DNA of 64,000 nucleotides from assembly GCA_036517335.1 (NCBI GenBank), contig DATDWX010000027.1, positions 24,192 through 88,191 of the forward strand, written 5' to 3'. Below are positions 9,406-53,631 of the stretch, in pieces. A program made the translations under genes and the position numbers. Source of the DNA: Minisyncoccota bacterium (GTDB taxonomy: Bacteria > Patescibacteriota > Minisyncoccia > Phycocordibacterales > UBA2100). Under the pieces are notes generated by a model. It ran no database searches and was not told where the DNA came from. It saw only the letters and a program-made list of their open reading frames with translations. Each line of letters begins with the position of its first letter. Position 1 is the first letter of the stretch.

Positions 9406-9435
9406 GCTGGGCAGTATACTGCATACTCTTCGTCA

Positions 9436-10518: not shown

Positions 10519-10579
10519 AGCCCTTTGTGCATCGTCCATATACTGTCAATTTATTTATGGACGAGGCCTAAGGGGGCAA

Positions 10580-11272: not shown

Positions 11273-11291
11273 TACCGTATACATACTGTGT

Positions 11292-12428: not shown

Positions 12429-12443
12429 TAGACTAACTCTGCC

Positions 12444-14383: not shown

Positions 14384-14416
14384 ACGACCGTAGAGGTACC
14401 GAATATACTGCCATGT

Positions 14417-16160: not shown

Positions 16161-16182
16161 GGCTTTTTGGGGTACTCTGCCG

Positions 16183-17750: not shown

Positions 17751-17758
17751 GGGCAGAT

Positions 17759-18316: not shown

Positions 18317-18334
18317 TGCGATGAGCGCTCGCGT

Positions 18335-35631: not shown

Positions 35632-35912
35632 ATCCCGTTAGAGATGACAAAAGTTGGTATACCTACGTACTTCGGAGTTTGAAGGACGGTAATTGGTACA
35701 CCGGTTTTACGAACGATCTACGGAAGCGCTTCAAGCAGCACAACGACGGGCTTACGTTCTCGACCAAAGGACGTCGTCCGTTAGAGGTGATATATTACGA
35801 AATGTGTAGAAATGAGCATGATGCTCGGTCGAGGGAATTATTTCTTAAATCTGGTATGGGAAAGCGTTATTTGCAAAACCGCTTGAAGCGCTTCCTATCT
35901 CTAACGGGATGA
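35628..35912 (+). CDS. GIY-YIG nuclease-domain protein (94 aa)
   Basis: SWYTYVLRSLKDGNWYTGFTNDLRKRFKQHN is the GIY-x10-YIG motif with the conserved R and N. The ATG overlaps the ABC transporter's TGA, and its own TGA overlaps the next gene's ATG. Confidence 0.75.
   Translation: MNPVRDDKSWYTYVLRSLKDGNWYTGFTNDLRKRFKQHNDGLTFSTKGRRPLEVIYYEMCRNEHDARSRELFLKSGMGKRYLQNRLKRFLSLTG
35632..35910 (+). mobile_element. small element bounded by 12-bp terminal inverted repeats ATCCCGTTAGAG / CTCTAACGGGAT, carrying the GIY-YIG gene and inserted at an ATGA gene junction
   Basis: TIRs at 35632-35643 and 35899-35910. The same termini and the same flanking ATGA...GAAATT context recur at 53515-53631. Confidence 0.6.
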
Positions 35913-37312
35913 AATTATTCTTGATCCAACTCGGGGAGATGGTGCCGGCGCAAGTAGATGTGGCGCGCATGCTCAAGAAAAATCACGAGATCCAATACTG
36001 GGTGCGGATGGAAAATCATTTCGCGGTCTACAGAGAGGAATTCGAGGGGACGTTCTTCCAGGATTATCTCGATGCGATTCAAGGGATTCCGGCTCGTGGG
36101 ATCGATCTGTACAAGTACGAGCCGTGGAGCGCGCACGATATCGCCGCATACGGGGATATCGAATCCGAGTACATGACCATGGCCGACAAATTGCATCCTC
36201 ATTGGTCTGTGAATCAGCGGAAGGATTTGTATTTCGATCTGCTTCGATACTGGGGCGGCATATTGGATGAATTCAAGCCCGATTGCATCGTTATCCTTGG
36301 GGTTCCGCATCACGAGTATGATTTCGTTTTGTACAAAATTGCGAAGCGCCGAGGTATACGTACGATCATCCTAGAGAACACGTTCAGAGGAGGTCGCTAC
36401 GTGTTGTATGAGGACTATACGGTTGGAAGCGAAAAATTTCTGATAGGGAATGGAGCGCGGGAGACAACACTTGAACAGCTCTCCCCTGAAATGCGTGCCT
36501 ATTTTGAACGCGTATCGCTGGGAGAGAACCCGGCGCCGCCCTACGTACAGGCATTCCACGAACGTCGTACGACCATTAACGCTATTCGCCGTTGGAATCA
36601 CGCCATCGTGCGATTCATTAAAGATCGCTCGCTCTTCGAACGTGCGATCTTGAAGGTGCTCAAGATGATGAAGCCATCTCTTAAGGATGAGCACCATGCA
36701 AACGAAAAAGCACCCAATTTCGATAATTCCTACGCGTATTTTCCCCTGCACTACCAGCCAGAATTTACTACGAGTCCCGCCGGAGGGCTCTATGTAGATC
36801 AAATGCACGCCATTAAAACGATTGCCGCGGCACTTCCAGAGGGATGGGAGTTGTATGTTAAAGAACACCCCGGCCAACTCGCCGTGCACGGCGGCAATTT
36901 TACGCCTGCACGCTACAGCGGCTTCTATTCAGCAATTGTCGCTATCCCGCATGTGCGACTTGTTCCGCTTGAGACAAATACGTACAAACTCATTGATCGA
37001 GCTCGGACGACCGCAACGATTGCGGGCACTGCCGGATGGGAGAGTATCTTGCGCGGCAAAACTGCACTCGTTTTGGGTTATCCGTGGTATTTGCAAGCGC
37101 CGGGCGTGCTTCGCGTATCGAGCGTCCCCGAATGTCGTAATGCTTTTGAAAAAATCACAGGTGGGTTTGTACCGCGGCAATCCGATATTCTCAGCTACCT
37201 CGATCGCGTCGACCAGGCGAGTTTGTACGGGGACTTACTTTATATAAAGACCGACACTCCGCAGTATGCGCAGGATATGTACACGGCTATCGAGGAGATG
37301 CTTGCATCTTGA
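35909..37312 (+). CDS. capsule polysaccharide biosynthesis protein (Capsule_synth / KpsS-KpsC-LipA family-like)
   Basis: YFPLHYQPEFTTSPAGGLYVDQMHAIKTIAAALPEGWELYVKEHPGQL is the family hallmark. Confidence 0.6.
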   Translation: MKLFLIQLGEMVPAQVDVARMLKKNHEIQYWVRMENHFAVYREEFEGTFFQDYLDAIQGIPARGIDLYKYEPWSAHDIAAYGDIESEYMTMADKLHPHWSVNQRKDLYFDLLRYWGGILDEFKPDCIVILGVPHHEYDFVLYKIAKRRGIRTIILENTFRGGRYVLYEDYTVGSEKFLIGNGARETTLEQLSPEMRAYFERVSLGENPAPPYVQAFHERRTTINAIRRWNHAIVRFIKDRSLFERAILKVLKMMKPSLKDEHHANEKAPNFDNSYAYFPLHYQPEFTTSPAGGLYVDQMHAIKTIAAALPEGWELYVKEHPGQLAVHGGNFTPARYSGFYSAIVAIPHVRLVPLETNTYKLIDRARTTATIAGTAGWESILRGKTALVLGYPWYLQAPGVLRVSSVPECRNAFEKITGGFVPRQSDILSYLDRVDQASLYGDLLYIKTDTPQYAQDMYTAIEEMLAS

Positions 37313-37313
37313 T

Positions 37314-38318: not shown

Positions 38319-38323
38319 TACGT

Positions 38324-39430
38324 ATGGATACTCGTTCATTCGAAGAGATAGAAAAAGCTGGGTGGGACGCTTTCTGCACAAATTCACCAGATGCGTGGTT
38401 TCGGCACACGAGCGACTTTATAAAGCTCGCGCTCGTGCTTGAGGAGGGAAATGAGAACCATTCATTTGCCATTACAAACGGTGAGCAGTTGCTTGCTGTA
38501 GTGCCGCTTGTGAGTCAGACGATCAGCGACACGCAAAGGCGCGAGTATGCTCTCGGAGGTATGACGCCCGCGCCGTACCCGGCGCTCTTGGCCGATCTAT
38601 CTCCTAAAGAACGGGAGAGCGTCAGTAAGTATATTTTTGAGGAGATCGACCGGCGGGCGAAAGAGGATGACATCTCCTGCGCGCGGATGTTCGTCGATCC
38701 GCTTAGTGATCCGATCATCGAGGGTGGCGTACGCTTTAATACGCTGGCAACATACGGATTCCACGACACATCGATGGCAACCGTTTGTATCCAACTCTCC
38801 AGGAGCCATGAGCAGATATTGAGTGGAATGTCCGAGCGCCGGCAGCGTTACATTGCGGCGGCAGAGCGCAAGAGAAACTGTCGGGTTGATATCTTTGATA
38901 GCGATTCCATTACGGATGGCATGTACAAGGAATATCAAACATTATTTTTCGAGGCGGCCGGAATGACCGTCGGCTCTAAAGAACGCTGGCAGACGACGCT
39001 AGAATGGATAAAAAATGGTTTTGCGCTGCTCGCGATAGTGCGAGCATCAGGGACAAATGAATTACTCGCCGGGCATTTAGTGATGTTCTATAAGAAGCGG
39101 GGGTACGACGTGAACTCCGCGATACATCCATCCCAAAGGAATAATCACGAAGTGGGCATGTACATGCAATGGAAGACGATGCTTTATATGAAAGAGCACG
39201 GCTGCACGCACTACGAGATCGGTTGGTTGTGGCCTCCGACCATTTCCGAATCCGTCTACTCACAAAAAGAATTGGCCATAGCGCACTCCAAGTCGCTTTT
39301 TGGGAAATACATTCTACCCGTCTTTCGGGGAGAAAAGTATTATGATATGGAATACTTGCGGGAGCGAAGAGCGGCATTGACCGAACAGTTTATAGCCCAC
39401 TATGGCAATAAGAAAAATATCACTGAATGA
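38324..39430 (+). CDS. FemAB/GNAT-like acyl or aminoacyl transferase (Acetyltransf_6-like)
   Basis: About 370 aa. The C-terminal GHLVMFYKKRGYDVNSAIHPSQRNNHEVGMYMQWKTMLYMKEHGCTHYEIGW resembles FemX/CelD-type GNAT folds. Confidence 0.4.
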   Translation: MDTRSFEEIEKAGWDAFCTNSPDAWFRHTSDFIKLALVLEEGNENHSFAITNGEQLLAVVPLVSQTISDTQRREYALGGMTPAPYPALLADLSPKERESVSKYIFEEIDRRAKEDDISCARMFVDPLSDPIIEGGVRFNTLATYGFHDTSMATVCIQLSRSHEQILSGMSERRQRYIAAAERKRNCRVDIFDSDSITDGMYKEYQTLFFEAAGMTVGSKERWQTTLEWIKNGFALLAIVRASGTNELLAGHLVMFYKKRGYDVNSAIHPSQRNNHEVGMYMQWKTMLYMKEHGCTHYEIGWLWPPTISESVYSQKELAIAHSKSLFGKYILPVFRGEKYYDMEYLRERRAALTEQFIAHYGNKKNITE

Positions 39431-40199
39431 GCTTGGGGCGTATTCGCCATGGATCAGGCGGCTCAAAGAAGGAAAGAAGCTCTTCGAAAAAACACCCGCA
39501 AGTCTGATGCGGGAGTACAATGAAGACAAATACGCGCCGCTTATGGCGTGCAAAACATTTGTTGATGCGATCCAAGCATATCGTGGTCCAAAAGAAGAAA
39601 CTGCATACTCTCGGCACGGTGAGCTTTTTGTAGACGATAAGGATGCCGTATATGAATTGCGCCAAAAAATCATGCTTGAAGCACTTCGCCCGACTCTTGA
39701 AATGGTCGAGATGGTGATCGAACTCGGCGCCGGATTTGGTCAGACCGTTCGGTCCATTCAAGAAGCGTATCCCGCGCTCGCGTATCGTGCTGGAGAATAC
39801 ACGCCCAACGGCGTCGCGCTTGGTCAGAAACTGCTTCCCGGTGTTCAATTCTATCCTTTCAACTTTTACAAAGCGGGCGACTGGGATCGCATATTCGATG
39901 GAGTAGAGAACGCGCTCGTTTTCACCGTGCATGCGGTGGAGATGATCCCGGACGCTACACTCTTTGTGCGGGAAGTACAAAGGCAAAAAAACAAGATACA
40001 CAGCGTTGTCAACTTCGAGCCGATTTATCGCGACGACGGCACTGAATTATCGCGCTATCGTATGAAATACATTGAGATCAATAGCTACTGCCAGAACATC
40101 CTGCAATCAATCCTGAACCCTCGGAAGATCGAAGAAGATTTTTTTGGCGTGAACCCCCTTTTTCCGAAGACGTTTATCGAGTGGGATCTTCATTCATGA
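39402..40199 (+). CDS. putative methyltransferase-fold protein
   Basis: VIELGAGFGQ glycine-rich loop. The frame is otherwise unrecognised. Confidence 0.4.
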   Translation: MAIRKISLNELGAYSPWIRRLKEGKKLFEKTPASLMREYNEDKYAPLMACKTFVDAIQAYRGPKEETAYSRHGELFVDDKDAVYELRQKIMLEALRPTLEMVEMVIELGAGFGQTVRSIQEAYPALAYRAGEYTPNGVALGQKLLPGVQFYPFNFYKAGDWDRIFDGVENALVFTVHAVEMIPDATLFVREVQRQKNKIHSVVNFEPIYRDDGTELSRYRMKYIEINSYCQNILQSILNPRKIEEDFFGVNPLFPKTFIEWDLHS

Positions 40200-40834
40200 T
40201 ACATATTCATCAACTGAAACGACTTCTGCTCGGTCTTGAGGATCGCTATTTTGACTGGGTCAACAACATCGACACGAGCCCGATTGTGAGCGGCGACGAG
40301 CTATATTCACAATTGCAGGATAACGCTCGCGTGTACCATGGAGCGTGGTGTCGCGCCATGCGCCAACTCTTTGCCGAGGCTCGACGATTGGGTGTCTACC
40401 CCCGGATTTTCGTCGACATTGGCTGCGGCAAGGGCAAGGCCTGCTTTTATGCGGCGCGATATAGCGGGTTTGAGCGGATAATTGGGATTGATTTCGATTC
40501 ATTCCTGATCAAAATCGCACAACGCAATTTGGAGAAGTTTGGCATGCCTGCGCATGCAGGAAACGCACAGATAACGTTTGAACACAAGGATGCCACAGAG
40601 TATTTGTTGCCCGAGGAGCAGTCGTTCGTTTTTCTTTTTAATCCATTCGACGATCAAGCGCTGCGCCTGTTCTTGAAGAACAACCTTGAGTCTTTTCAAA
40701 AGAACGCTCATGTCATTGGATATTCCAATGATGTTCACCGTATTGTGATTGAACAGATGGGGTTCCGGAAATTGTACCGCGATGATGCGCGAAAAATGTC
40801 GCTCTGGCAATGGGGCCGCCCGTCACTTTCATAG
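40196..40834 (+). CDS. class I SAM-dependent methyltransferase
   Basis: FVDIGCGKGKACFY motif I, and GIDFDSFLIKIAQRN. Confidence 0.6.
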   Translation: MIHIHQLKRLLLGLEDRYFDWVNNIDTSPIVSGDELYSQLQDNARVYHGAWCRAMRQLFAEARRLGVYPRIFVDIGCGKGKACFYAARYSGFERIIGIDFDSFLIKIAQRNLEKFGMPAHAGNAQITFEHKDATEYLLPEEQSFVFLFNPFDDQALRLFLKNNLESFQKNAHVIGYSNDVHRIVIEQMGFRKLYRDDARKMSLWQWGRPSLS

Positions 40835-40864
40835 AACTACCTGATTTGGTACAGTGCGTTTGGC

Positions 40865-42298
40865 ATGACTCGTACACGAATATCTAGCCGCATCCTTTCC
40901 GAATTCAAGGCATGGCGGAAACAGCCTCCCATTCAGAAAGATTGTGGGATCATTTGGGTATTGAGTGGACAAGACACTGGCTGGGAAAAGGGCTCCGACA
41001 CGAGGCGGCGGCTTGAGGAGGGGATGCGGCTCGCCAAAAAAGTGGCCCGCATGAACCGTGGGAAATTACCCGCCGTATACATCAGCGGTTGGGATGAACA
41101 CAATACCAATCTAAAAAAATGGCGCGCGGAAGGCTTGTTTGAGAAAATATATGGATTTCCGCGTAGGAAAATGCTCATCGGCCCGCAAGAGCGCATCATC
41201 CACACGGGCGATCAATTTCGCCTCTTTCCGAAGAAGTTCTTGCGCGGCAATAAAAAGATCATCGTTCTGACCGACCTCTACCATCTACCGCGCGCAAGGC
41301 GGCATATGGCGCGGTATTTCCCACTGCAGCGTGATCGATTTATTTTTTATCCCGCGGCGCCGGTCTCAATAAGTTCTGCCGAAGTTGCCCGGCAGACGCG
41401 AAAGATCATCGAATATGCGAAGCGAGGCTTCATCCCTCTGTTCCCTGATGTAAAGAAAGTTGTCGTCTCGGGTGCTAGCGGCTTTCTCGGGTCGCGACTC
41501 ATTGCGGAACTATCCAAACGCGATGATGCATCGTCAGTGCCCTTGCCGCGAGAAGCATTTAGAAATCAAAAGCTGCTGCGCTCTAAGGTCCGCGGGGCCG
41601 ATGTCGTGTTCCATCTTGCGGGTGTGAATCGTGCGAATAGTCCCGAGGAATATCAGTTCAACATGAGCTCGACGAAGATGCTCCTTGCAGCGATGAAAAG
41701 TGTCGCGCCGAGCGCCCTCTTGGTCTACACCTCTTCGTTTGCCGTGTATCGGCCACCGCGCAAAGGTCAGACCGTAGACGAGAGATTTCCTCTTCAGCCG
41801 AGAAATGCTTACGGCGCATCAAAATTGGCAGCGGAGAAATTGCTGCGTACAGCTTTGCAGCGCTACGGCATTTCCTCGCTTGCTCTGCGCATTTCAAATA
41901 TGTACGGCCCGCATGCCAAGACCTCACGGGCGATCGTGGACCAGATTCGCCATGCGATAGAAACCGGAAAGCCGATCACGGTACACACCGACATGTCCGC
42001 GACACGCGACTTTGTGTACGTGGATGACGTGGTCTCCGCGCTGATCAGGGTCATGGGGCGCAGGGGTAAAAAAAAGCGTTTTGAAGTATTCAATATTTGC
42101 ACCGGCGATGAAGTCAGCATTGCCGCGATCATACAGATGGCAGAAAAAGTGGCCGGAAAAAAGCTGGATATCGTGAAGCGTCCGGACGCGAACGAACGAG
42201 CGGCCTATTGGCAGGGGAGTTTTCAAAAGGCGAAAAAAGGACTACAATGGCAGCCTAAAGTCAAGATTCACCAAGGACTCCGTAAAACCCTTGTATAA
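40865..42298 (+). CDS. fusion of a DUF218/YdcF(ElyC)-like domain with an NAD-dependent epimerase/dehydratase
   Basis: The N-terminal 160 aa (IWVLSGQD...KIIVLTDLYHLPRARRHMARYF) are YdcF-like. The C-terminal domain has VVVSGASGFLGSRLIAEL, and YGASKLAAEK with the Tyr-x3-Lys. Confidence 0.55.
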   Translation: MTRTRISSRILSEFKAWRKQPPIQKDCGIIWVLSGQDTGWEKGSDTRRRLEEGMRLAKKVARMNRGKLPAVYISGWDEHNTNLKKWRAEGLFEKIYGFPRRKMLIGPQERIIHTGDQFRLFPKKFLRGNKKIIVLTDLYHLPRARRHMARYFPLQRDRFIFYPAAPVSISSAEVARQTRKIIEYAKRGFIPLFPDVKKVVVSGASGFLGSRLIAELSKRDDASSVPLPREAFRNQKLLRSKVRGADVVFHLAGVNRANSPEEYQFNMSSTKMLLAAMKSVAPSALLVYTSSFAVYRPPRKGQTVDERFPLQPRNAYGASKLAAEKLLRTALQRYGISSLALRISNMYGPHAKTSRAIVDQIRHAIETGKPITVHTDMSATRDFVYVDDVVSALIRVMGRRGKKKRFEVFNICTGDEVSIAAIIQMAEKVAGKKLDIVKRPDANERAAYWQGSFQKAKKGLQWQPKVKIHQGLRKTLV

Positions 42299-43346
42299 GG
42301 CCATGGATTATAAGAAACTCTTCACCGGCAAACGTATCCTCGTCTTGGGCGGTACCGGATCTATCGGTTCGGTTATTGTGCACGAACTTTTGAAATACGA
42401 TCCAAAACAAGTCCGCGTCTACTCGCGCGACGAATCCAAGCACCAGGAACTCCTCTTCACCATTCCGGAAAAACAACATGCAAAGATCCGCTCATTGATC
42501 GGCGATGTGCGCGATCGAGAGCGGCTGCACTTCGCCATGCGCGATATTGATATCGTGTTTAATGCTGCGGCGATGAAGCACGTACCGTTCTGCGAATACA
42601 ATCCCTTTGAAGCCGTGAAAACCAACGTGTATGGCACGCAAAATGTACTCGACTCCGCGCGAGAGCACAACGTGGAAAAGGTGATCACCATCTCGACCGA
42701 CAAGGCGGCGGATCCCAACAGTACGCTCGGCGCGACGAAATTGCTTGCCGAAAAATTGACCTCTGCCGCCAACGCCTATCAAGGCAAGGGGCGCACGGTG
42801 TTTGCCTCGGTGCGTTTTGGCAACGTGCTCGGAAGCAGCAACTCTCTTCTGCCGATCATCAAGCGACAATTCCTCGCTGGCAAGCCGATCACCATCACCG
42901 ATTACCGGATGACACGCTTCATTATGCCGACCGAATCTGCCGTCGAGCTCGTCTTCGAAGCAACAGCGCGCATGGAAGGCGGCGAAATATTCGTACTCAA
43001 AATGCCGTCGGTCTCGATAGAAGAGCTCATCCGCGCCTATGTGGAGCTGCTCCAGCAGCACTACCACATCAAGAAAAAGATTACCTATACATTCATAGGC
43101 GCGCGGCCGGGAGAAAAAATACATGAGAAGTTGCTGACCGAGCATGAAGCAAGCTTTGCGGTAGAGAAGGAAAAACTCTTTGTCGTGATGCCGGGTATCA
43201 CGGCGCAAGTGCTGAAGAAAAACGGTCGTTTCAAGGCTACGAGCAAAGCACGAGAGCACACGGGGTATCACTCGGGTACCGCTCCCAAATTAAGCAAGGC
43301 TGAAATTCAAAAAATTATTCTTAATCTCAAAGACACGGCACTATGA
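42291..43346 (+). CDS. pseB: UDP-GlcNAc 4,6-dehydratase-like (PseB/FlaA1/CapD family)
   Basis: GKRILVLGGTGSIGSVIVHELLKYDPKQVRVYSRDESKHQ...IGDVRD...FNAAAMKHVPFCEYNPFEAVKTNVYGTQNVL...STDKAADPNSTLGATKLLAEK matches the PseB-type pattern. Confidence 0.7.
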   Translation: MYKAMDYKKLFTGKRILVLGGTGSIGSVIVHELLKYDPKQVRVYSRDESKHQELLFTIPEKQHAKIRSLIGDVRDRERLHFAMRDIDIVFNAAAMKHVPFCEYNPFEAVKTNVYGTQNVLDSAREHNVEKVITISTDKAADPNSTLGATKLLAEKLTSAANAYQGKGRTVFASVRFGNVLGSSNSLLPIIKRQFLAGKPITITDYRMTRFIMPTESAVELVFEATARMEGGEIFVLKMPSVSIEELIRAYVELLQQHYHIKKKITYTFIGARPGEKIHEKLLTEHEASFAVEKEKLFVVMPGITAQVLKKNGRFKATSKAREHTGYHSGTAPKLSKAEIQKIILNLKDTAL

Positions 43347-44392
43347 CGAATACGATTTCCATCGCTGGCAAAAAAATCGGTCCGGGACAACCCGTCTACA
43401 TCATGGCCGAGGCGGGGGTGAATCACAACGGCTCTCTGGAGCGTGCGTACCAGCATATCCGCGAGGCCAAAAAAGCGGGCTGCGACGCGATCAAATTTCA
43501 GACGTACAAGGCCGAACACCTCACGACGAAAAAAGCTCCGAAGTATTGGAACGTGGGCGATGACGACCTTTCGCAATACGAGACCTTCTCGAAGCTCGAT
43601 GCGTTCCCGATCGAGTACTATCGCAAATGTATGGTGTACGCCAAAAAACAGGGCATCATGTTTTTCTCCACCCCATTTGATCTCGATTCGGTCGACTTGT
43701 TGGAAAAGATAGGCGTCCCCGCATACAAGATCGCCTCGGCCGATATCACCTTCTTCCCCCTCCTCAAAAAAGTGGCGAAGACCAAAAAACCGATGATCAT
43801 GTCCACGGGCGCTTCCACACTCGGTGAGATGGAAGAGGCAGTGGAATACGTGCGATCTTTTGGCAACAAAAAAATTATCCTCCTCCACTGCATCTTGAGC
43901 TATCCCACGGATGCGGAGGATGCAAATCTCCTGATGATCGATGATATTCAGCGCGCCTTCCCCGATATCCCGATCGGATTTTCCGACCACACCTTCGACC
44001 CCCTTACACCCGCCTTCGCGGTGATGCGTGGCGCGCGCATCATTGAGAAACACTACACGGTAGATAAATCACTGCCAGACAGCCCCGACCACAAGCTCGG
44101 TGTGGATCCCGATGAACTGAAGCAACTGTGTACTGCCGTGCGATTGGCCGAAAAAAGCCTGGGACAAACACATCGCAGCCCGCTCAAATCTGAAATGGCA
44201 GCGCGCAAGCTCGCCCGTCGCTCTCTCACCTCTGCCGTGGTTATTCCGAGGGGGGCCGTGATCACGCAGAAGATGCTCATGGGTAAACGGCCCGGCACAG
44301 GCATTCCCACGAAATTCATGGATGCGGTCGTCGGCCGCACGGCCCGTAAGAACATTCCTGAAGACACGACCCTTACCTGGGCGCATGTATAA
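43343..44392 (+). CDS. neuB: nonulosonic acid synthase (NeuB/PseI/LegI family) with C-terminal SAF domain
   Basis: PVYIMAEAGVNHNGSLERAYQHIREAKKAGCDAIKFQTY...PAYKIASADITFFPLLKKVAKTKKPMIMSTG, and the C-terminal antifreeze-like domain. Confidence 0.8.
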   Translation: MTNTISIAGKKIGPGQPVYIMAEAGVNHNGSLERAYQHIREAKKAGCDAIKFQTYKAEHLTTKKAPKYWNVGDDDLSQYETFSKLDAFPIEYYRKCMVYAKKQGIMFFSTPFDLDSVDLLEKIGVPAYKIASADITFFPLLKKVAKTKKPMIMSTGASTLGEMEEAVEYVRSFGNKKIILLHCILSYPTDAEDANLLMIDDIQRAFPDIPIGFSDHTFDPLTPAFAVMRGARIIEKHYTVDKSLPDSPDHKLGVDPDELKQLCTAVRLAEKSLGQTHRSPLKSEMAARKLARRSLTSAVVIPRGAVITQKMLMGKRPGTGIPTKFMDAVVGRTARKNIPEDTTLTWAHV

Positions 44393-45359
44393 AGGAATTG
44401 TCATCGGGTGCGGCAAGATCGGAGCATTGCTCGAAGCCAATGAAAAACGACCGAGGCCTCGCACACACGCGAGCGCGCTCACAGTGAATCCAAAAACCTC
44501 ACTCGCAGCTCTCGTTGACACCAACCCCGAGAATCTTAAACAAGCGAGTGCATTATTTCCTGGCGTTCCAACCCTTAGCGATCTCAAAGAGGTGCTCGCA
44601 CGAGTGAGGCCCGATATTGCAATCGTCGCAACCAATCCTGCAAGCCACGCCTTGATCGTGGAGCAGTGTGTGAAGAGTGGCGTGCCGATTATCATCGGTG
44701 AAAAGCCGCTCGCAGATTCTCTCGAAAATGCGCAGCGAATTCGACAGGCGATAAGGAAAAGCGGCGCGACCTTTGCACTCAACTATCAGCGGCGCTATTT
44801 CCCTCTTTTTGCGCATGCGAAGAAGCGCCTTGCAGCAGATGAGATTGGACGCATCCACACGATCGAGTGCCGCTATGATAATGGGCTTTTCAACAACGGC
44901 GGCCACGCGATCGACAGCATGCAATTTCTCATTGGGAATCGCATAGCCCATGTCTCGGGTACGGTGAATGCCCGCAACCCGACCTATCCGGAGAGCGATC
45001 CGAATATCGACGGTGAGGGAATGATGCAGAACGGCGTGCAGATTTTCTTCAAAAGTTTCGATCAAAAGATTTCACCGATCCATGAGCTGCACGTTTCGGG
45101 CGAAAATGGATCGCTTCACGTACTCGATTACGGGTATAGCTTTGAGTGGAGCGACACATCGGGCAAAACAACCCGCTCTGAACGAGACGAGGTCAGCATG
45201 ACTGCGGGCGCCTTGGAGGACGCCCTCGACGCATATGAGAAGAAACGATCTCCACTAAGCGGCACTCCCAACGGGATCGAAACACTCACGGTTCTTGAGG
45301 CGTTTTCCGAGAGCGCGAAACACAATGGCAAGCGAGTTGAAGTTGCGTATACTGGGTAA
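44385..45359 (+). CDS. Gfo/Idh/MocA-family oxidoreductase
   Basis: MYKGIVIGCGKIGA Rossmann N-terminus, and EKPLADSLENAQ. Start at the internal Met overlapping the neuB stop. Confidence 0.65.
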   Translation: MYKGIVIGCGKIGALLEANEKRPRPRTHASALTVNPKTSLAALVDTNPENLKQASALFPGVPTLSDLKEVLARVRPDIAIVATNPASHALIVEQCVKSGVPIIIGEKPLADSLENAQRIRQAIRKSGATFALNYQRRYFPLFAHAKKRLAADEIGRIHTIECRYDNGLFNNGGHAIDSMQFLIGNRIAHVSGTVNARNPTYPESDPNIDGEGMMQNGVQIFFKSFDQKISPIHELHVSGENGSLHVLDYGYSFEWSDTSGKTTRSERDEVSMTAGALEDALDAYEKKRSPLSGTPNGIETLTVLEAFSESAKHNGKRVEVAYTG

Positions 45360-45360
45360 T

Positions 45361-46647
45361 ATGCAAACACGGAGGGCAGTTCTTGCGATCAACGGCGGCA
45401 AACCCGTTTTCAACGGGAAGCTTCCGGAGATACACAATCATGACCGAAAGGAAGTGGCCGCTGCTACACGCGTCATTATGCACGGTCCGCTCTCGGGATT
45501 CGTCGGGGTGGCGGGGAAGCGTTTCCTTGGCGGAAGGGAGGTGCGCGCGCTTGAAGCGTCATTCGCAAAAAAGTTCAAAGTGAAGCATGCGGTGTCCTTC
45601 AATTCGGCGACCACTGCGCTGCATGCCGCCATTGTCGCGCTCGAGATCGGACCGGGCGATGAGGTGATCGTGCCGCCATATTCGATGTCGGCTTCTGCTA
45701 CCGCAATTCTTGCGAATGGCGCCGTGCCGATATTTGCGGATATCGACGAGCGCACGTTTTGTATCGACCCCAAGTCCGTTCGGCGGCGCATCACAAAAAA
45801 CACGAAGGCGATCATGGTCGTTAATCTCTATGGGCAAGCCGCGGATTTCACCGAGCTTTTGCAAATAGCCAAACAACGCAAACTCAAGCTCATTGAAGAC
45901 AACGCGCAATCGCCCGGCGCGAAATGGAAGGGGAAATTTGCGGGCACCATCGGCGACGTAGGTGTTTTTAGCTTCAACGTCCACAAGACAATGCAGACAG
46001 GCGAGGGCGGCATGCTCGTGACCAACAGCGCGCGCGCAGCACAGCGCGCGCAGCTCTGTCGCAATCACGGGGAAGCGGTCGTAGATCAGATGCCCCAGTA
46101 CGATGCTGGCCCGATTTTTGGTAGCAACTATCGCATGACAGAGCTCATCGCGGCGATCGCTCGTATCCAGATCACCCGCCTCGATCACCTGACCAGAAAG
46201 CGCCAGGCACTCGCCGCGCATCTCACAAAGAGGCTCGCAAAAATTCCGGGTATTACGCCGCCTTTCGTCCATCCAGGCAACACACATGTCTACTACCGCT
46301 ACACAATCAAAGTAAATCCAAAGATCCTCGGTATTTCACGCGATACACTCGCAGAGGCGATGGCAGCCGAGGGATTCCCCATTTCTAAGGGCTACGTGAG
46401 GCCAATCCATCTCCTACCGGTCTTCCAATCCCGCCGAGCGTTCAACAATACTGAATTTCCGTTCAAGAATAGCTACTACGACGGCAACCCTGATTATTCC
46501 AAAGGGACATGCCCGGTGGTGGAGCGATTGGAAGAGCAAGAGATCACACTCACTGACATCTGTCAGCACCCAAATACAAAAAAGCATACTGATCTCTTTG
46601 TACAAGCGCTCCTGAAAGTGCTCGCACACAAAGATGAACTCCGCTAA
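45361..46647 (+). CDS. DegT/DnrJ/EryC1-family sugar aminotransferase (PseC/LegC-like)
   Basis: FSFNVHKTMQTGEGGML, the PLP-Lys motif. Start at MQTRRAVLAINGGKPVF, immediately after the preceding stop. Confidence 0.7.
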   Translation: MQTRRAVLAINGGKPVFNGKLPEIHNHDRKEVAAATRVIMHGPLSGFVGVAGKRFLGGREVRALEASFAKKFKVKHAVSFNSATTALHAAIVALEIGPGDEVIVPPYSMSASATAILANGAVPIFADIDERTFCIDPKSVRRRITKNTKAIMVVNLYGQAADFTELLQIAKQRKLKLIEDNAQSPGAKWKGKFAGTIGDVGVFSFNVHKTMQTGEGGMLVTNSARAAQRAQLCRNHGEAVVDQMPQYDAGPIFGSNYRMTELIAAIARIQITRLDHLTRKRQALAAHLTKRLAKIPGITPPFVHPGNTHVYYRYTIKVNPKILGISRDTLAEAMAAEGFPISKGYVRPIHLLPVFQSRRAFNNTEFPFKNSYYDGNPDYSKGTCPVVERLEEQEITLTDICQHPNTKKHTDLFVQALLKVLAHKDELR

Positions 46648-47695
46648 AAAGATCTTGTTCAGCGCCAACGACCCGGGCGGGTGGAATGCCATCCTACCGG
46701 TCGTGCGCGCACTCGTTGAAAGAGGCGACGTCGCGCAAGGTATTCTAACCGGCCCCGCCCTCGATCAATTTCGTTCTCTTGACTCCTCATCCCAATACTT
46801 CGTTATAAAACGAAGTATTGGGATCATCGATGGCGCGCAATTTTCTGACAATGATCTTGCGCGAGAGATTGCAGCATTCAAACCGGATGTGTATCTCGCC
46901 GCTTCCTCTATTGGAAATTCTATAGACAAACGGATATTCAAATTATTGAGAAATATCACATCCGTGTACGTGGTGGATTTTTGGTCGCACTACGCGCACC
47001 GATTCGTAGAGAAGCAGCAAGACTTACGTCACATGCCCACGCGCATCTGCGTCATCGATGAGCGGATGAAAAAGATGATGCTCGAAGAGAGATTTCCGGA
47101 AGAGCGCATCACGATTACGGGCAATCCACATTTTGATCATTTTGCCGATGCCATCACAAGCGACCACGAAGATAACACCCGCGCCGTATTTATTTCGCAA
47201 CCCATCAAGCAGGATAAAAAGCACGCAGGGTATGCCGACCGAGGGTTCGACGAGTTTGGAACATTCGAAAGCGTCATCCGCTGCCTGCCCGATGATCTGC
47301 ATCTTTCAATACGCCTTCATCCGCGCGAGAAGCGAGCAAAGTTCAACGCATACCTGAATGATCGGATCACGGTGGGAGACGAAGCAACATTGGAAGAAGC
47401 GCTCTCGAAAGCCGGACTCGTCATCGGCATGTTCAGCCCTGTTCTCATGCAATCCGCGCTCGCGGGCAAACCAACCATCAGCTACCAGCCGGGCAATGCC
47501 GAAGATCCCTTGCCGACCAACCCAGTCGGTATCACCAAGCTTGCGAGGAACGAGAGCGAATTGCGAGCACTCATAAAAAAATATCAAGACTGGCAATTTC
47601 CAAAATCGAAGGAAAAAGTCGAGAATATCTGGCCCAAAGGCGCGACAGAGCGCGTTGTCGCCGTCATTGATGAGATAATCACAGGCAAGGTATGA
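46634..47695 (+). CDS. GT28-C/PseG-like UDP-sugar hydrolase or glycosyltransferase
   Basis: Weak resemblance of the C-terminal GLVIGMFSPVLMQSALAGKPTISYQP to MurG/PseG C-domains. Placement inside the nonulosonic acid cassette supports the call. Confidence 0.35.
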   Translation: MNSAKKILFSANDPGGWNAILPVVRALVERGDVAQGILTGPALDQFRSLDSSSQYFVIKRSIGIIDGAQFSDNDLAREIAAFKPDVYLAASSIGNSIDKRIFKLLRNITSVYVVDFWSHYAHRFVEKQQDLRHMPTRICVIDERMKKMMLEERFPEERITITGNPHFDHFADAITSDHEDNTRAVFISQPIKQDKKHAGYADRGFDEFGTFESVIRCLPDDLHLSIRLHPREKRAKFNAYLNDRITVGDEATLEEALSKAGLVIGMFSPVLMQSALAGKPTISYQPGNAEDPLPTNPVGITKLARNESELRALIKKYQDWQFPKSKEKVENIWPKGATERVVAVIDEIITGKV

Positions 47696-48450
47696 TTGAC
47701 GGAAAGAAAGTAGTGGCGACGATTGAGGGGCGGATGACTTCTTCTCGCTTGCCGGGGAAGATACTGCTGCCCCTCTCGGGGAGGCCGGTGATGGCTCATA
47801 TGATCGAACGGCATCGGAGAAGCAAACTTGTTGATGCAGTGGTGGTGGCGACGACTACGAATGCAAGCGATGACCCTGTCGTTGCTTTGTGCGAGGAAAT
47901 GAAGTGCGCCTACTTTCGCGGCAGCGAGAACGATGTGTTTGCGCGCGTGGCGGGGGCAGGGGAGAAATACGGCGCGGAATTTTTGCTGCAAGGCATGGCT
48001 GACTGTCCGCTGGTGGATCATCGGCATATGGATATATGCCTTACGTTGCTCGCAAGCTCGGGCGCCGATGTGGCTGGCAACGAATATCCTGTGACGTTCC
48101 CGCTCGGCTTCAACGTGCGTGCATACAAATTTTCTACATTCAGAAAAGCCGAGCAAGAAGACACCGACCCCGCCTATCGTGAACACGCGGGCTACTCCAT
48201 CCGCTCACAACCGGAGAAATTCAGAGTGGTAAATTGGGAAGCGCAAGGGAGGATGCGCTGGCCCTCTCTTCGTCTCACGCTCGATACTCCAGAGGATTAC
48301 ACACTTATTTCGGCTGTATACGATGCGCTATATCCGAAGAACTCTGACTTCTCCGCAGAAGACGTCGTACAGTTTTTACGGGGACGGCCTGACTTGGTCG
48401 CACTCAACAGCGAGATCAAACAAAAAGTACCGAAGCTCGAACGGGGCTAG
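47692..48450 (+). CDS. neuA: acylneuraminate (nonulosonate) cytidylyltransferase, NeuA/PseF/LegF-like
   Basis: VVATIEGRMTSSRLPGKILLPLSGRPVMAHMIER is the CMP-sugar synthetase N-terminus, with SpsF-like CTP_transf_3 architecture. Confidence 0.7.
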   Translation: MIDGKKVVATIEGRMTSSRLPGKILLPLSGRPVMAHMIERHRRSKLVDAVVVATTTNASDDPVVALCEEMKCAYFRGSENDVFARVAGAGEKYGAEFLLQGMADCPLVDHRHMDICLTLLASSGADVAGNEYPVTFPLGFNVRAYKFSTFRKAEQEDTDPAYREHAGYSIRSQPEKFRVVNWEAQGRMRWPSLRLTLDTPEDYTLISAVYDALYPKNSDFSAEDVVQFLRGRPDLVALNSEIKQKVPKLERG

Positions 48451-49451
48451 ACAATTTCTGAAAGCGCGACGAACCGCTTTTCGGCATGCGAGAGCCGCGC
48501 AGCATCGAGAATGCGCGCCTGCACCAGCAGATCTGCCCCGTACTTTTTGGTGCTCCGAGCGCCGAGCATGATCTCTTTGCAAAAATCATCGATCATTAGG
48601 CGGAAGTGATCCGCTGGCTCGATAGGAATTTCGGTGATCGTGTCATCTTTGTTCAAAAATATTTTTACCGCCCTGTCTTTCGGCACCGCATACGCGCGCT
48701 CCAGCGCCACCTGCGCCTGCGTGCCCAGCACGCGGTAGGTAGATTGAAAGTACGAGCCGAAAATGCTCGACACAAAAGCCGACTTGCCGCCGGGATACGT
48801 GAGCAACATGTCCACTTTTGTATCAATGCCCGTTTGCGCATCAAGAGCGAGCGTGCACGCCACGCTGACGGGCTCCGCATTGAATACAATTCTACTGGCG
48901 GCAATGGGGTAGACGGCCGCATCATTCAATACGCCACCGCCGAGATCGCGCTTCAGAATATTGGCTTCCTTCCCCGGCATGGGCACGGCGAAGCATCCGT
49001 CGAAGGTCAAAAGCTCCCCGAGGGTTCCGCCATCAATGAGTTGCCGTACTTTCGCGTGCTGCGGGTGTGAGAGGAACATAAAGCCCTCCATAAGGCGCAC
49101 GCTATTCCTTTTTGCGGCCTCCACCATGCGCTTGGCTGAAGGGTAGGTAAGTGCCGCGGGCTTCTCGCACCACACGTGCTTGCCCGCCCCCGCCGCCTTG
49201 ACCGCCCATTCTTCGTGCAATGAGTTGGGGAGAGAAATATAGACCGCGTCTATATCGCTTTTTAGCACGTCATCATACGTACCGGTGCTGCAGCCGTATT
49301 CCACTGCAACGCTTTTGACTTGCTCGGGCACTCTACTGCCGATCATCGAGAGGTGCGCGACTGGTGATTCAGCAAGTGCGGGCAACACAGATCTCTTCGC
49401 GATGCGCGAACACCCGAGCACACCAAAGCGGATTTTTTGGTTGTCGTTCAT
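48447..49451 (-). CDS. Gfo/Idh/MocA-family oxidoreductase
   Basis: IRFGVLGCSRIAKRSVLPAL, and EKPAALTYPSAKRMVEAAKRNSV. Confidence 0.7.
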   Translation of the reverse strand: MNDNQKIRFGVLGCSRIAKRSVLPALAESPVAHLSMIGSRVPEQVKSVAVEYGCSTGTYDDVLKSDIDAVYISLPNSLHEEWAVKAAGAGKHVWCEKPAALTYPSAKRMVEAAKRNSVRLMEGFMFLSHPQHAKVRQLIDGGTLGELLTFDGCFAVPMPGKEANILKRDLGGGVLNDAAVYPIAASRIVFNAEPVSVACTLALDAQTGIDTKVDMLLTYPGGKSAFVSSIFGSYFQSTYRVLGTQAQVALERAYAVPKDRAVKIFLNKDDTITEIPIEPADHFRLMIDDFCKEIMLGARSTKKYGADLLVQARILDAARLSHAEKRFVALSEIV

Positions 49452-49460
49452 TACAAAAAC

Positions 49461-49883
49461 TTACTGACTGGGCATCTTGAAATTGGGGTCCCCATGATCG
49501 CCCCTGCCCATCCCAAGGTTCTCGTGCACGATGGGTTTCTCACAATCGTCCCATTTTTTCGTGAGCATGCTCACGAGATTTACGTCGGTGATGCCATACA
49601 ATACGTGCACTGCGCCGGCGGGGATGTGGATGCAATCGCCCTTGCTCACATAGAGAAACGACTCTTTATCTTTCTCTTTCGTCACGATTACGCCCGTGCC
49701 GTCGGTAATGACGTAGTATTCGTCGAATTCCGGATGGTAGTGATTGCCTCGCACCTTCCCCTTGTTGAGAAAGAGGAAGTTGAACTCCACGATGGGCTTA
49801 TCGGGGTAAAAGGTAAAAATACCACCCCTTCCGTCCCGAACGGTGTCGAGATTGCACGCAGGATCAATTTTCCGTATTTTCAT
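49461..49883 (-). CDS. cupin-fold protein, WxcM/FdtA-like sugar ketoisomerase candidate
   Basis: 140 aa; RGNHYHPEFDEYYVITDGTGVIV...GDCIHIPAGAVH is the cupin two-His motif. Confidence 0.45.
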   Translation of the reverse strand: MKIRKIDPACNLDTVRDGRGGIFTFYPDKPIVEFNFLFLNKGKVRGNHYHPEFDEYYVITDGTGVIVTKEKDKESFLYVSKGDCIHIPAGAVHVLYGITDVNLVSMLTKKWDDCEKPIVHENLGMGRGDHGDPNFKMPSQ

Positions 49884-49943
49884 GGCGAGATTCCGATACC
49901 ATCATCCTAACAAAGTATCCCACCCGTGCAATCCGAATGTGGC

Positions 49944-50201
49944 CTATCCATACAATTCGCTGTGAGTCCCTATGCGCATGAACAATACGTCAAAGTTCCG
50001 TTCCTTGAAAATCGCCCTGTAATCTCCTGTCACATTGATGCTGCGACAACCGGGGAAACGTTTGTCCACGGAGTGGTTGTTGAGGAGCGGATGAAATATA
50101 TCGGTACGGAACAAATCAGCACGTTCAAAAAATTTCCGCTGGATCCCCTGCGACAGTTTGTCGAATTCCTTCTCGAACCGACGATGGAAACGAATGATCA
50201 T
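49944..50201 (-). CDS. relE: RelE/ParE-superfamily type II toxin
   Basis: MIIRFHRRFEKEFDKL...HPLLNNHSV...GCRSINVTGDYRAIFK...IGTHSELY matches the RelE/StbE pattern. Confidence 0.65.
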   Translation of the reverse strand: MIIRFHRRFEKEFDKLSQGIQRKFFERADLFRTDIFHPLLNNHSVDKRFPGCRSINVTGDYRAIFKERNFDVLFMRIGTHSELYG

Positions 50202-50482
50202 GTCCTGCTGCGCTTGAGGTATGCCTCCATTTCTTCGACAGTAGAAAAGGCGGGAGAAATGTTCTTCCCCCGCTCGGCATCGCGCAATATTGTGCGAATG
50301 CTACGTGCTGTTTGTGCGTTGAATCTCTCCTCGTTGACGATGCCGACGTCGAATTTGCCCTCCGCGAAGGCTTTTGTGGCAAGTTTCAAAACTGCGGCAA
50401 AAGGCACGCCCTCTCGCTTGGCGCGGCGCATCGCCTGCGCCTTGATCTTGGAATCAACTTTGAATACAACCTGTGAAGTCAT
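50198..50482 (-). CDS. relB: RelB/DinJ-family antitoxin
   Basis: 94 aa with an N-terminal RHH-like segment (VVFKVDSKIKAQAMRRAKREGVPFAAVLKLA). It lies upstream of the toxin and overlaps it by 4 bp. Confidence 0.55.
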   Translation of the reverse strand: MTSQVVFKVDSKIKAQAMRRAKREGVPFAAVLKLATKAFAEGKFDVGIVNEERFNAQTARSIRTILRDAERGKNISPAFSTVEEMEAYLKRSRT

Positions 50483-50572
50483 TTGTATATCTTATAGATA
50501 GCTTAAAGATATGTCAACGCTATAGGCATAGGAAGGGTATCTCTGCGATTTTCGCTATGGTATCGTGGGTGA

Positions 50573-53514: not shown

Positions 53515-53631
53515 ATCCCGTTAGAGGCCGCGGTCGCTCAGCGAATATCATTTACATGCATGTGGTCGAAATTACAAGAACGTCTAATCGCAGCTTGCGG
53601 GTAGCAGACCGCGACCTGCCTCTAACGGGAT
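53515..53631 (+). repeat. MITE-like, gene-less derivative of the GIY-YIG element (TIRs ATCCCGTTAGAGGC / GCCTCTAACGGGAT), encoding only a 40-aa ORF MNPVR...LPLTG
   Basis: It has the same 12-bp termini and the same ATGA / GGGATGAAATT junction context as 35632-35910. Its stop TGA overlaps the ATG of the downstream gene. Confidence 0.6.

Follow-up and report, generated by a model that had tools for sequence, protein, structure and literature searches.

We analyzed a window of 64,000 nucleotides from a Minisyncoccota bacterium (assembly GCA_036517335.1, contig DATDWX010000027.1, positions 24,192 to 88,191), in which a preliminary description made from the sequence alone had recognized a non-canonical cassette for nonulosonic acids (NulOs), the sialic-acid-like nine-carbon sugars, among them pseudaminic (Pse) and legionaminic (Leg) acids. 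NulOs decorate flagella, pili, S-layers, and capsules and govern host and phage recognition, and the known logic of their synthesis is narrow: dehydration, amination at C4, acetylation, release, condensation, and activation. The cassette is a true NulO cassette and is indeed non-canonical; it forms the enzymatic core of a surface-glycan locus of about 20 genes in a bacterium of the candidate phyla radiation (CPR; Candidatus Paceibacterota). Within it lie three adjoining genes encoding a Gfo/Idh/MocA secondary-alcohol dehydrogenase (MocA1), a long-type DegT aminotransferase, and a divergent GT-B protein of the UDP-GlcNAc 2-epimerase fold (here called Epi2). This widespread and uncharacterized three-gene module probably makes an undescribed sugar variant. 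In the pathway that we favor, with a probability of roughly 0.4, dehydration, reduction at C4, release, condensation by the synthase NeuB, and activation with CMP would be followed by a late amination of the NulO itself by MocA1 and DegT.

All eight open reading frames (ORFs) named by the preliminary description were recovered at the same coordinates. The window belongs to a scaffold of 86–90 kb from metagenomes of the Rifle aquifer. Its proteins carry NCBI accessions HEY4516877-83 (a Candidatus Paceibacterota metagenome-assembled genome) and are found, with identical gene calls, on 16 independent metagenome contigs. Along the plus strand from 35909 to 48450 the stop codons overlap the starts of the following genes, indicating a single operon.

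The MocA1–DegT–Epi2 Triad in Nonulosonic Acid Clusters

A scan of one genome per species yielded 64 loci encoding Epi2 relatives; their ORFs were searched using the window proteins plus references drawn from the loci themselves, and the counts given here refer to 65 non-redundant loci. This shows that MocA1, the DegT of about 430 amino acids (aa), and Epi2 are contiguous in 50 of the 65, with the triad DegT beside an IolG-like MocA. The triad loci come from archaea, CPR bacteria, and eight or more further phyla, and with few exceptions they are NulO clusters; 38 of them have NeuB and a PseB-like gene within 10 kb. The first MocA, taken at the outset for an extra oxidoreductase, is thus confirmed as a GFO_IDH_MocA protein and proves to be part of a conserved unit. 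The gene order is MocA1–DegT–Epi2 in CPR bacteria and (CMP-transferase)–MocA1–Epi2–DegT in Proteobacteria, Gemmatimonadota, Verrucomicrobiota, Acidobacteriota, Planctomycetota, and Methanoregula, and a cytidylyltransferase–MocA1 order was found in more than 15 loci.

A complete canonical Pse set (PseB, PseC, PseF, a PseG–PseH fusion, and PseI) precedes the triad in Chitinimonas taiwanensis, Sulfuricella denitrificans, and Methanoregula, and a GNAT protein, or else a WbpG-like protein together with HisH and HisF, comes after it; the Chitinimonas cluster adjoins flagellin. A Latescibacterota locus (L056) encodes Epi2 and DegT without MocA1 beside Leg-type genes, namely a PtmE-like nucleotidyltransferase, a LegB-like short-chain dehydrogenase/reductase (SDR), a PglD-like acetyltransferase, a true Epimerase_2 LegG, and NeuB; L045 and L046 have true LegG-like genes as well. 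As the triad accompanies complete Pse and Leg sets, it is an add-on module and does not simply stand in for missing PseC and PseG; as it joins both canonical Pse sets and Leg-type genes, it would act on something common to all NulO types. The roughly 50 related loci thus point to a conserved module of three enzymes that is superimposed on NulO pathways of the Pse, Leg, and "7-hydroxy" types and spread over many phyla including CPR bacteria and methanogens. A further protein recurs at the edge of the triad: u406 (L010:4025-5245), unannotated, about 400 aa long and without a Pfam match, lies beside Amidase or WbpG-like/HisH/HisF genes, and proteins of its type were also found in L037, L056, and L064, in CPR and non-CPR loci, next to GNAT, amidase, or acetamidino-forming genes.

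The enzymes around the triad bear out the NulO character of the cassette. The dehydratase is PseB-like as described before, with NCBIfam scores of 317 bits for PseB (TIGR03589; cut-off 408), 226 for FnlA, and 78 for LegB. The NeuB-type synthase likewise has both expected domains (PF03102, 273.6 bits; SAF, 39 bits) and scores 339.7 bits on NeuB_NnaB (TIGR03569; cut-off 399.65) and 306 bits on PseI (TIGR03586; cut-off 340), compared with 22–29 bits on the DAHP synthase families. It is a predicted nonulosonate synthase and not a DAHP or KDO8P synthase, an affinity that the preliminary description had considered. Its best PDB matches are the Bacillus subtilis SpsE (1VLI, 224 bits), PseI (194 bits), and the Neisseria meningitidis NmNeuB (169 bits), of which SpsE is the Leg synthase of the UDP-linked pathway of B. 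subtilis (PMC7439481). The phylogenetic placement proposed for NeuB was carried out with 50 synthases from the related loci together with SpsE, PseI, and NmNeuB. In this neighbor-joining tree, which is midpoint-rooted and carries no bootstrap values, the window NeuB and its close relatives group with SpsE, away from NmNeuB and outside the clade formed by PseI (8H2C) and all synthases from loci with PseC and PseG; loci with an SDR of the kind described below carry their own NeuB lineages, apart from PseI. The CMP-sugar synthetase is also confirmed (CTP_transf_3); its best PDB match is the cytidylyltransferase 6OEW with 104 bits, and PseF reaches just 25 bits. All NCBIfam equivalog cut-offs for Pse, Leg, and Neu enzymes are missed (PseB 317/408, PseC 229/424, PseI 306/340, NeuB 340/400, PseF 25/206), which together with the Pfam and NCBIfam matches indicates a real but divergent cassette. 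One of the related loci, L019 of a Kaiserbacteria genome, encodes a second NeuB of 642 aa with an extra C-terminal region (15316-17244, minus strand), whose neighbors are a cytidylyltransferase and a class III aminotransferase similar to HemL; Leptospira has a comparable second set of NulO genes, in which NeuB likewise has an extra domain.

The DegT protein (428 aa in the NCBI annotation, which places its start 12 codons later) belongs to the family originally assigned, and the PseC/LegC-type role implied for it does not hold. Its PDB matches rank perosamine synthase (203 bits), 8GYH (198), BtrR (171), KdnA (169; the Kdo8N transaminase), DesV (167), WbpE (139), PseC (2FN6; 103), and PglE (100). 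PseC is the top NCBIfam match with 229 bits, below the cut-off of 423.5, whereas true PseC proteins of the relatives score higher on this model (462 bits in L019); compared with the window DegT, true PseC proteins reach 105–195 bits and triad DegTs 326–399 bits. Judged from these scores, DegT is not of the PseC/PglE type. MocA1 has invariant motifs including EKP and GGHxxD, and its AlphaFold (AF2) model reached a mean predicted confidence (pLDDT) of 97. Its fold neighbors are generic Gfo/Idh/MocA proteins: 1,5-anhydrofructose reductase, glucose-fructose oxidoreductase, WlbA (rank 14), and GenD2; in sequence, WlbA (3Q2K) matches with 36 bits over the N-domain only. ElaA was not among the PDB sequence or fold matches of MocA1, and the names of the proteins matched in its homologue search were uninformative. 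ElaA, a MocA enzyme encoded beside a cytidylyltransferase, oxidizes the C8 hydroxyl of CMP-Leg5,7Ac2 (PMC13656337).

Proposed Reduction at C4, Sugar Release, and Epi2

The fusion of DUF218 with an SDR upstream of the dehydratase, suggested earlier as a possible member of the cassette, does belong to it: in L007 and L011, the closest relatives, its position is unchanged. The top NCBIfam match of its SDR part is WbcJ/WbjC, the UDP-2-acetamido-2,6-dideoxy-L-arabino-hexul-4-ose reductase (99 bits), which is the reductase of exactly the PseB/FnlA product, and its PDB matches include Cap5F and Pal; we infer that it is a C4-ketoreductase for the dehydratase product. An RmlD-like SDR (RmlD_sub_bind, 161 bits) takes its place in relatives. 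A PseC-type transaminase and an SDR of the 4-ketoreductase type exclude each other almost completely in the 38 full loci: 11 of the 12 loci without PseC have the SDR, compared with 1 of the 26 with PseC (Fisher p = 1e-7), and the window belongs to the former group. This exclusivity suggests that the 4-keto intermediate would be reduced, not aminated, giving a 6-deoxy-L-HexNAc. A role of the SDR in a Pen/Pal-type split PseB was rejected, as Pal scores 66 bits, below other GalE-like matches, and the anticorrelation with PseC would be left unexplained.

The other canonical steps also look different. No PseG was found in the 21 kb of window 33343-54392 (L001) by phmmer with the PseG domain of L060 at E <= 1e-4, nor among the ORFs at 9–21 kb by a Pfam scan, and no PseH-type Acetyltransf_1/3 protein is encoded in the operon. 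The earlier remark that the cassette contains no acetyltransferase stands for 42291-49883; the same operon does, however, hold a FemAB-family acyltransferase, the sole N-acyltransferase candidate within it. PseG accompanies PseC in 15 of 16 non-CPR loci and occurs in no CPR locus; DUF218, in turn, is found in 14 of 19 CPR loci, including all ten with PseC, where it lies between PseC and PseI, and in none of 19 non-CPR loci (examples are window 40865-41434, L019:12157-12768, and L009:13750-14376). From this complementary pattern DUF218 may be a UDP-sugar hydrolase that functionally replaces PseG in CPR bacteria.

Two accessory genes follow on the opposite strand, as had been noted: a second MocA oxidoreductase (MocA2) and a small cupin. 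The cupin had been compared to WxcM/FdtA, and of this the fold assignment stands and the specific likeness is faint: FdtA (PF05523) is matched with E 0.015 and 15.6 bits against a cut-off of 23, and WxcM-like PDB chains with E 0.15–0.5, whereas the best specific solved match is the C-terminal cupin of CapF (Cap5F residues 247-341, E 3.4e-5). Cupin and SDR together resemble a split CapF/WbjC (C3-epimerase plus C4-reductase), and MocA2 matches the sugar 3-ketoreductase KijD10 (3RBV) with 165 bits; the FdtA-type ketoisomerase branch proposed for these genes is weakly supported. The MocA2–cupin pair also adjoins NeuB in a Peribacteria locus (L009), which marks the pair as accessory to such clusters, not as a chance neighbor.

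Epi2 had been labeled GT28-C/PseG-like, which our searches contradict. It has no Pfam match, and Glyco_tran_28_C was detected by profile scan in none of 86 family members. Epimerase_2 is matched weakly by 67 of the 86 (Epi2 itself reaches 16 bits on PF02350, below the gathering score of 30.6) and the polysialyltransferase model, also weakly, by 31 (best E 2e-6). Its homologues are mostly unnamed CPR proteins, one of which NCBI calls a polysialyltransferase-family glycosyltransferase (GT). An AF2 model from the 86-sequence alignment (pLDDT 93.9) was compared with the PDB by Foldseek, and its ten best matches are all UDP-GlcNAc 2-epimerases (E 1e-13 to 1e-10, TM-scores of 0.57–0.68); these include 3OT5, 4NEQ, 8SYD, 1F6D, 5XVS, and 6VLC and span non-hydrolyzing, hydrolyzing (NeuC), and WbpI-type enzymes, the last represented at rank 5 by 8SYD. 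An alignment of 61 Epi2 sequences drawn from many phyla was compared by hhalign with WecB plus three LegG-like proteins, which it matched at 98.9% (E 3e-17, 332 columns, full length), with Capsule_synth-like proteins (97%, E 1e-10, 252 columns), and with 13 PseG domains (18%). Broad alignments on both sides were needed, since a single WecB sequence against a CPR-only Epi2 alignment gave a probability of 30%. The structural and profile evidence makes Epi2 a divergent member of the 2-epimerase-fold GT-B superfamily; an identity as PseG was rejected, and with it and the DegT assignment the PseB–PseC–PseG logic implied by the first labels falls.

The VTGNP and RLHP motifs of Epi2 align with the epimerase VTGNT and the catalytic His, and of the WecB catalytic residues, E117 and H213 correspond to an invariant Asp115 and an invariant His229, whereas E131 has no clear counterpart. 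RLHP also fits the HP motif of the bacterial sialyltransferase-like NulO transferases, whose other motif is D/E-D/E-G; the window protein reads LEER where the family consensus has AEG. The NCBIfam model BFO_1060 (NF046086) is matched over the N-domain only, with E 3.9e-10 and a weak 39 bits against a cut-off of 200; members of this family are genetically required for Pse/Leg transfer in Tannerella forsythia (Tanf_01245/BFO_1060; PMC5420450). The Epi2 family comprises 1,421 clusters at 50% identity with E <= 1e-30, and 4,690 with E <= 1e-10. Epi2 is a candidate for either a UDP-sugar hydrolyzing epimerase or a NulO transferase, and some compact operons (L063 and L023, for example) encode no other candidate for the release step.

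A Proposed Pathway and Its Alternatives

Our proposal builds on what we observed, namely the protein families, the arrangement as an operon, the conserved triad, and the exclusivity of PseC and SDR, and its substrates, step order, and regiochemistry are inferred from them. The PseB/FnlA-like enzyme would turn UDP-GlcNAc into UDP-4-keto-6-deoxy-L-HexNAc, in line with its family assignment, and the WbjC/CapF-like SDR of the DUF218 fusion would reduce the 4-keto group, possibly after C3 epimerization by the CapF-like cupin. Epi2 (in a NeuC/LegG-like reaction), DUF218, or both would release the free 6-deoxy-HexNAc from UDP; the SpsE-like NeuB, again as its family suggests, would condense it with phosphoenolpyruvate to a 5-acetamido-3,5,9-trideoxy-NulO, and the SpsF-like cytidylyltransferase would convert this to the CMP-sugar. 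MocA1 would then act on a secondary hydroxyl still present in the NulO, oxidizing it in the way that ElaA oxidizes C8 of CMP-legionaminic acid, and the long-type DegT would transaminate the resulting ketone, so that the second amino group is installed late. The FemAB-like acyltransferase and the methyltransferases might tailor the sugar, and the Capsule_synth-like protein, the GT2, the ABC exporter, and the Wzy_C-TPR protein could attach and export the glycan.

Several points weigh against this proposal. Regiochemistry is not readable from sequence, the combination of MocA, DegT, and 2-epimerase is the WlbA/WlbC/WlbD enzyme set, and in the literature searched we found no naturally occurring NulO whose amino group is additional or introduced late. 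The statistic for the exclusivity of PseC and SDR is inflated by the phylogenetic relatedness of the loci. The best solved relatives of DegT include C4-aminotransferases of 4-keto-6-deoxy sugars (perosamine synthase), and an early amination is therefore possible. For Epi2, WecB D95 is replaced by an invariant Ser92, a true PseG or LegG co-exists with it in many loci, and it shows transferase-like affinities to BFO_1060, polysialyltransferases, and Capsule_synth-like proteins; if it were a transferase, the release step would have no enzyme in eight loci of the SDR-plus type.

The strongest competitor, itself unlikely, is a classical route to a 5,7-diamino legionaminic-type sugar, with DegT as the C4-aminotransferase on the dehydratase product, an upstream acyltransferase acylating N4, Epi2 as a LegG-like hydrolyzing 2-epimerase, NeuB as a LegI/SpsE-type synthase, and the CMP-transferase as a LegF/SpsF-like enzyme; MocA1 and the SDR would then be an ElaA/ElaC-like oxidize–reduce pair that epimerizes one carbinol of the CMP-sugar (e.g., C8). 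The rank of the perosamine synthases, which are 4-aminotransferases, among the PDB matches of DegT fits this route, as do the place of PseC as its top NCBIfam match, the homology of Epi2 to LegG/WecB, the grouping of NeuB with the Leg synthase SpsE, the SpsF/Leptospira-like CMP-transferase, and the ElaABC precedent. It leaves unexplained, however, why the SDR occurs almost only where PseC is absent and why MocA1 occurs without any SDR in 25 loci with PseC, and those loci would have two aminotransferases competing for one substrate; moreover, the SDR is an extended WbjC/RmlD-type NDP-hexose reductase and not a classical ElaC-type SDR.

Less likely again is the synthesis of two sugars, in which the triad would be a WlbA/WlbC/WlbD (WbpB/WbpE/WbpI)-like branch leading to a UDP-2,3-diamino-2,3-dideoxy-hexose of the ManNAc3N type, a second residue of the glycan, and the PseB-like enzyme, the SDR, DUF218 (as hydrolase), NeuB, and the CMP-transferase would separately make the 5-acetamido-3,5,9-trideoxy-NulO. 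The enzyme families match the Wlb/Wbp pathway exactly, with WlbA and 8SYD among the fold matches of MocA1 and Epi2; in many loci the gene after the triad encodes GNAT, or WbpG-like with HisH and HisF; complete Pse or Leg sets, with their PseG or LegG, are present alongside the triad; and DUF218 is fused to the window SDR. Yet the triad lies almost always inside NulO clusters, often directly after the cytidylyltransferase, DegT matches WbpE (139 bits) less well than Per, BtrR, and KdnA, and eight SDR-plus loci, including the gap-free operon L063, would be left without an enzyme releasing the NeuB substrate. Nor was a UDP-GlcNAc 6-dehydrogenase flagged in the flanks by phmmer with the window proteins, among which there is no WbpA-type query. 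A related variant, amination of the hexose at C3 by MocA1 and DegT before NeuB acts, we rejected on chemical grounds of our own reasoning, because C3 of the hexose becomes C6 of the NulO, whose oxygen closes the pyranose ring.

A last alternative, on a par with the two-sugar explanation, makes Epi2 a dedicated GT-B transferase for the (modified) CMP-NulO, like Tanf_01245/BFO_1060 or the polysialyltransferases; MocA1 and DegT would modify the CMP-sugar, and release would fall to DUF218 or an unrecognized protein. The BFO_1060 and polysialyltransferase matches, the HP motif, the hhalign match to Capsule_synth-like proteins, and the presence of PseG or LegG in other loci speak for it. The relation to 2-epimerases is nevertheless the stronger one and full-length, no GT is among the top Foldseek matches, compact operons without PseG, DUF218, and NeuC would have no release enzyme, and the operon already has a candidate transferase in its Capsule_synth-like protein.

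Returning to the late amination, the conversion by the MocA–DegT pair of a hydroxyl of an already formed (CMP-)NulO into an amine, for example at C8 as with ElaA, is a tentative idea on present evidence. If it were true, these clusters would make an undescribed class of bacterial and archaeal sialic-acid-like sugars: the window product would be a 5,8-diamino (or late-aminated 5,7-diamino) NulO in which a hydroxyl replaces the usual C7 amine, and Pse-type clusters with the module (Chitinimonas, Sulfuricella, Methanoregula, and others) would yield a 5,7,8-triamino NulO. The Epi2 family, with more than 1,400 clusters at 50% identity and no Pfam model, would be a dedicated release or transfer enzyme. 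Late amination would bring a new surface-sugar class together with new enzymology (a NulO oxidase/transaminase pair), and would show CPR bacteria, with their reduced genomes, investing in elaborate sialic-acid-like surface glycans. In the literature searched, no paper came up that connects CPR bacteria with NulOs or reports a NulO with extra amination, and a SugarBase preprint and the literature on Leptospira and on NulO-synthase phylogeny offered no match to the triad. Since cultured carriers exist (Chitinimonas taiwanensis DSM 18899 and Sulfuricella denitrificans), the module is directly testable.

The Surrounding Locus and Known Systems

The gene inventory of the locus is given in the table.

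Table. Genes of the NulO locus, with positions in the window and the matches on which the assignments are based.
Feature	Position	Strand	Evidence or remark
ABC exporter, MsbA/HepA/PglK-like	33889..35631	+	ABC_membrane + ABC_tran; HepA 324 bits, MsbA 306, PglK 214
Capsule_synth-like GT-B protein	35909..37312	+	PF05159 E 1.3e-5
Short divergent DegT-like pyridoxal-phosphate (PLP) protein, 350 aa	37266..38318	+	DegT 68.5 bits, profile positions 110-308 only
FemAB-family (Acetyltransf_6) acyl/aminoacyl-transferase	38324..39430	+	PF13480 29.5 bits; TIGR04421 FemAB_IMCC1989 51 bits
265-aa protein with S-adenosylmethionine (SAM)-methyltransferase-like motif VIELGAGFGQ	39402..40199	+	Faint methyltransferase Pfam matches only
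Class I methyltransferase	40196..40834	+	Methyltransf_25/31/11
DUF218 (residues 1-190) fused to extended SDR (residues 191-477)	40865..42298	+	PF02698 31 bits; Epimerase 124 bits
PseB/FnlA-like UDP-GlcNAc 4,6-dehydratase	42303..43346 (ORF opens TTG 42291)	+	Polysacc_synt_2 E 8.6e-97
NulO synthase NeuB + SAF	43343..44392	+	NeuB E 1.8e-81
MocA1, Gfo/Idh/MocA secondary-alcohol dehydrogenase	44385..45359	+	PF01408 63 bits; IolG 70 bits
Long-type (~430 aa) DegT aminotransferase	45325..46647	+	DegT 317 bits
Epi2, divergent GT-B protein of UDP-GlcNAc 2-epimerase fold	46634..47695	+	No Pfam match
SpsF/Leptospira-type cytidylyltransferase (CMP-NulO synthetase)	47692..48450	+	CTP_transf_3 74 bits
MocA2, KijD10-like NDP-sugar 3-ketoreductase-type oxidoreductase, accessory	48447..49451	-	3RBV match
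Small cupin, nearest CapF C-terminal (C3-epimerase) domain, accessory	49461..49883	-	Cupin_1/2
PMT_2/ArnT-like transferase	50573-52015	+	Downstream glycan assembly
GT2	52019-52726	+	Downstream glycan assembly
Methyltransferase	52732-53436	+	Downstream glycan assembly
Wzy_C-TPR ligase/O-oligosaccharyltransferase-like protein	53630-55909	+	Downstream glycan assembly

The ABC exporter, directly 5' of the gene run and beside the cassette also in L008, L010, and L019, is a probable flippase for the glycan or a lipid-linked sugar. A homologue of the Capsule_synth-like protein, a candidate NulO transferase, adjoins the ABC gene in the Kaiserbacteria locus L019 (456 bits). The short DegT-like protein keeps an SLQK lysine motif and co-occurs with FemAB in four CPR NulO loci (L018, L024, L026, and L032, with one or two FemAB each); the pair (37266-39430) may form a sub-module for aminoacyl-type N-acylation. 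In L023 and L028 a homologue of the 265-aa protein separates the PseB-like gene from the SDR; in L048-L050 the homologue follows DegT. GT2 and Wzy_C-TPR genes flank the cassette also in L007, L009, and L010.

Other genes were noted in the vicinity. A ParE/YafQ-type toxin (85 aa) with an upstream 94-aa partner is located between the cupin and the PMT_2 gene (49944-50482, minus strand), where a 191-aa ORF on the plus strand (49926-50501) is probably spurious. Divergent from the NulO operon are an RmlB-like dTDP-glucose 4,6-dehydratase (31919-33022, minus strand; 263 bits, below the cut-off), near which no RmlA was seen, and a Methyltransf_24 protein (33065-33808, minus strand). Further upstream, 20944-29733 (plus strand) encodes a 2,929-aa protein with SpvB, FG-GAP, RHS-repeat, and glycine-rich domains, polymorphic-toxin-like or a surface protein, and 9085-20874 is a second glycan locus. 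Encoded in the latter are a GDP-mannose 4,6-dehydratase extended N-terminally by 120 aa, three methyltransferase and GT4 genes, another extended SDR, a heptose-like pair of PfkB kinase and HAD phosphatase, a GMC oxidoreductase, and one more GT, but no DegT, PseG, or NeuC. The protein beside SecA (60164-63973, minus strand; 1,269 aa) has a bacterial surface Ig-like domain and is a possible glycosylation target.

Compared with known systems, the cassette shares with the Campylobacter/Helicobacter Pse pathway a start by a Polysacc_synt_2 PseB-type dehydratase and an end by a NeuB-family synthase and a CTP_transf_3 protein, and many triad relatives lie inside complete Pse clusters; it differs in having no PseC, PseH, or PseG, with a 4-ketoreductase SDR in the stead of PseC. 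With the Leg pathways of C. jejuni and of B. subtilis (UDP-linked; SpsM, C, D, G, E, F; PMC7439481) it has in common an SpsE-near NeuB, an SpsF/Leptospira-like cytidylyltransferase, a GT-B protein of the 2-epimerase superfamily in the LegG position, and a Capsule_synth-like gene in the operon. In contrast to these pathways, the operon contains neither a LegC/PglE-type transaminase nor a PglD/LegH hexapeptide acetyltransferase, and Epi2 is far below the Epimerase_2 gathering score and has no D95-equivalent acid. ElaA–ElaB–ElaC, the C. jejuni PtmF–PtmB–PtmA arrangement, is a module for C8 epimerization of CMP-Leg5,7Ac2 (PMC13656337). It likewise places a Gfo/Idh/MocA protein beside the cytidylyltransferase of a NulO cluster, and the proposed oxidation of a carbinol on the activated NulO is the same; in the window, however, the partners of MocA1 are an aminotransferase and a GT-B protein and not a classical SDR, and the ketone would be aminated, not re-reduced.

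The UDP-ManNAc3NAcA pathway of WlbA/WlbB/WlbC/WlbD (WbpB/D/E/I) also unites a MocA dehydrogenase, a DegT transaminase, an N-acyltransferase, and an Epimerase_2-fold enzyme contiguously in one operon. Unlike this pathway, the triad is found almost always in NulO clusters, with a DegT closer to Per, BtrR, and KdnA and a highly divergent epimerase-fold protein, and a C3-aminated hexose could not serve as a NeuB substrate that cyclizes. CapE/CapF/CapG (FnlA/B/C; WbvB/R/D) lead to UDP-L-FucNAc, L-QuiNAc, and L-RhaNAc, and the set that takes the 4-keto intermediate to a 6-deoxy-L-HexNAc is complete in the window, where the dehydratase is PseB/FnlA-like, the C4 reductase WbjC/CapF-like, and the cupin CapF-like, and a 2-epimerase-fold protein is present; its CapF equivalent is, however, split into the DUF218-fused SDR and a stand-alone cupin on the other strand, and the product would be released and fed to NeuB, not used as a UDP-sugar. 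To our knowledge, no oxidize-then-transaminate pair has been described for NulOs. The closest parallels are the pairs KdnB/KdnA (Kdo8N), NtdC/NtdA, GenD2/GenS2, and StrI/StsC, in which a dehydrogenase has as its partner a DegT-family transaminase acting on a substrate other than an NDP-hexose, and of which KdnA is among the top PDB matches of DegT (169 bits) and GenD2 among the fold matches of MocA1; the substrate of the window pair, in distinction from all of these, would be a nonulosonic acid.

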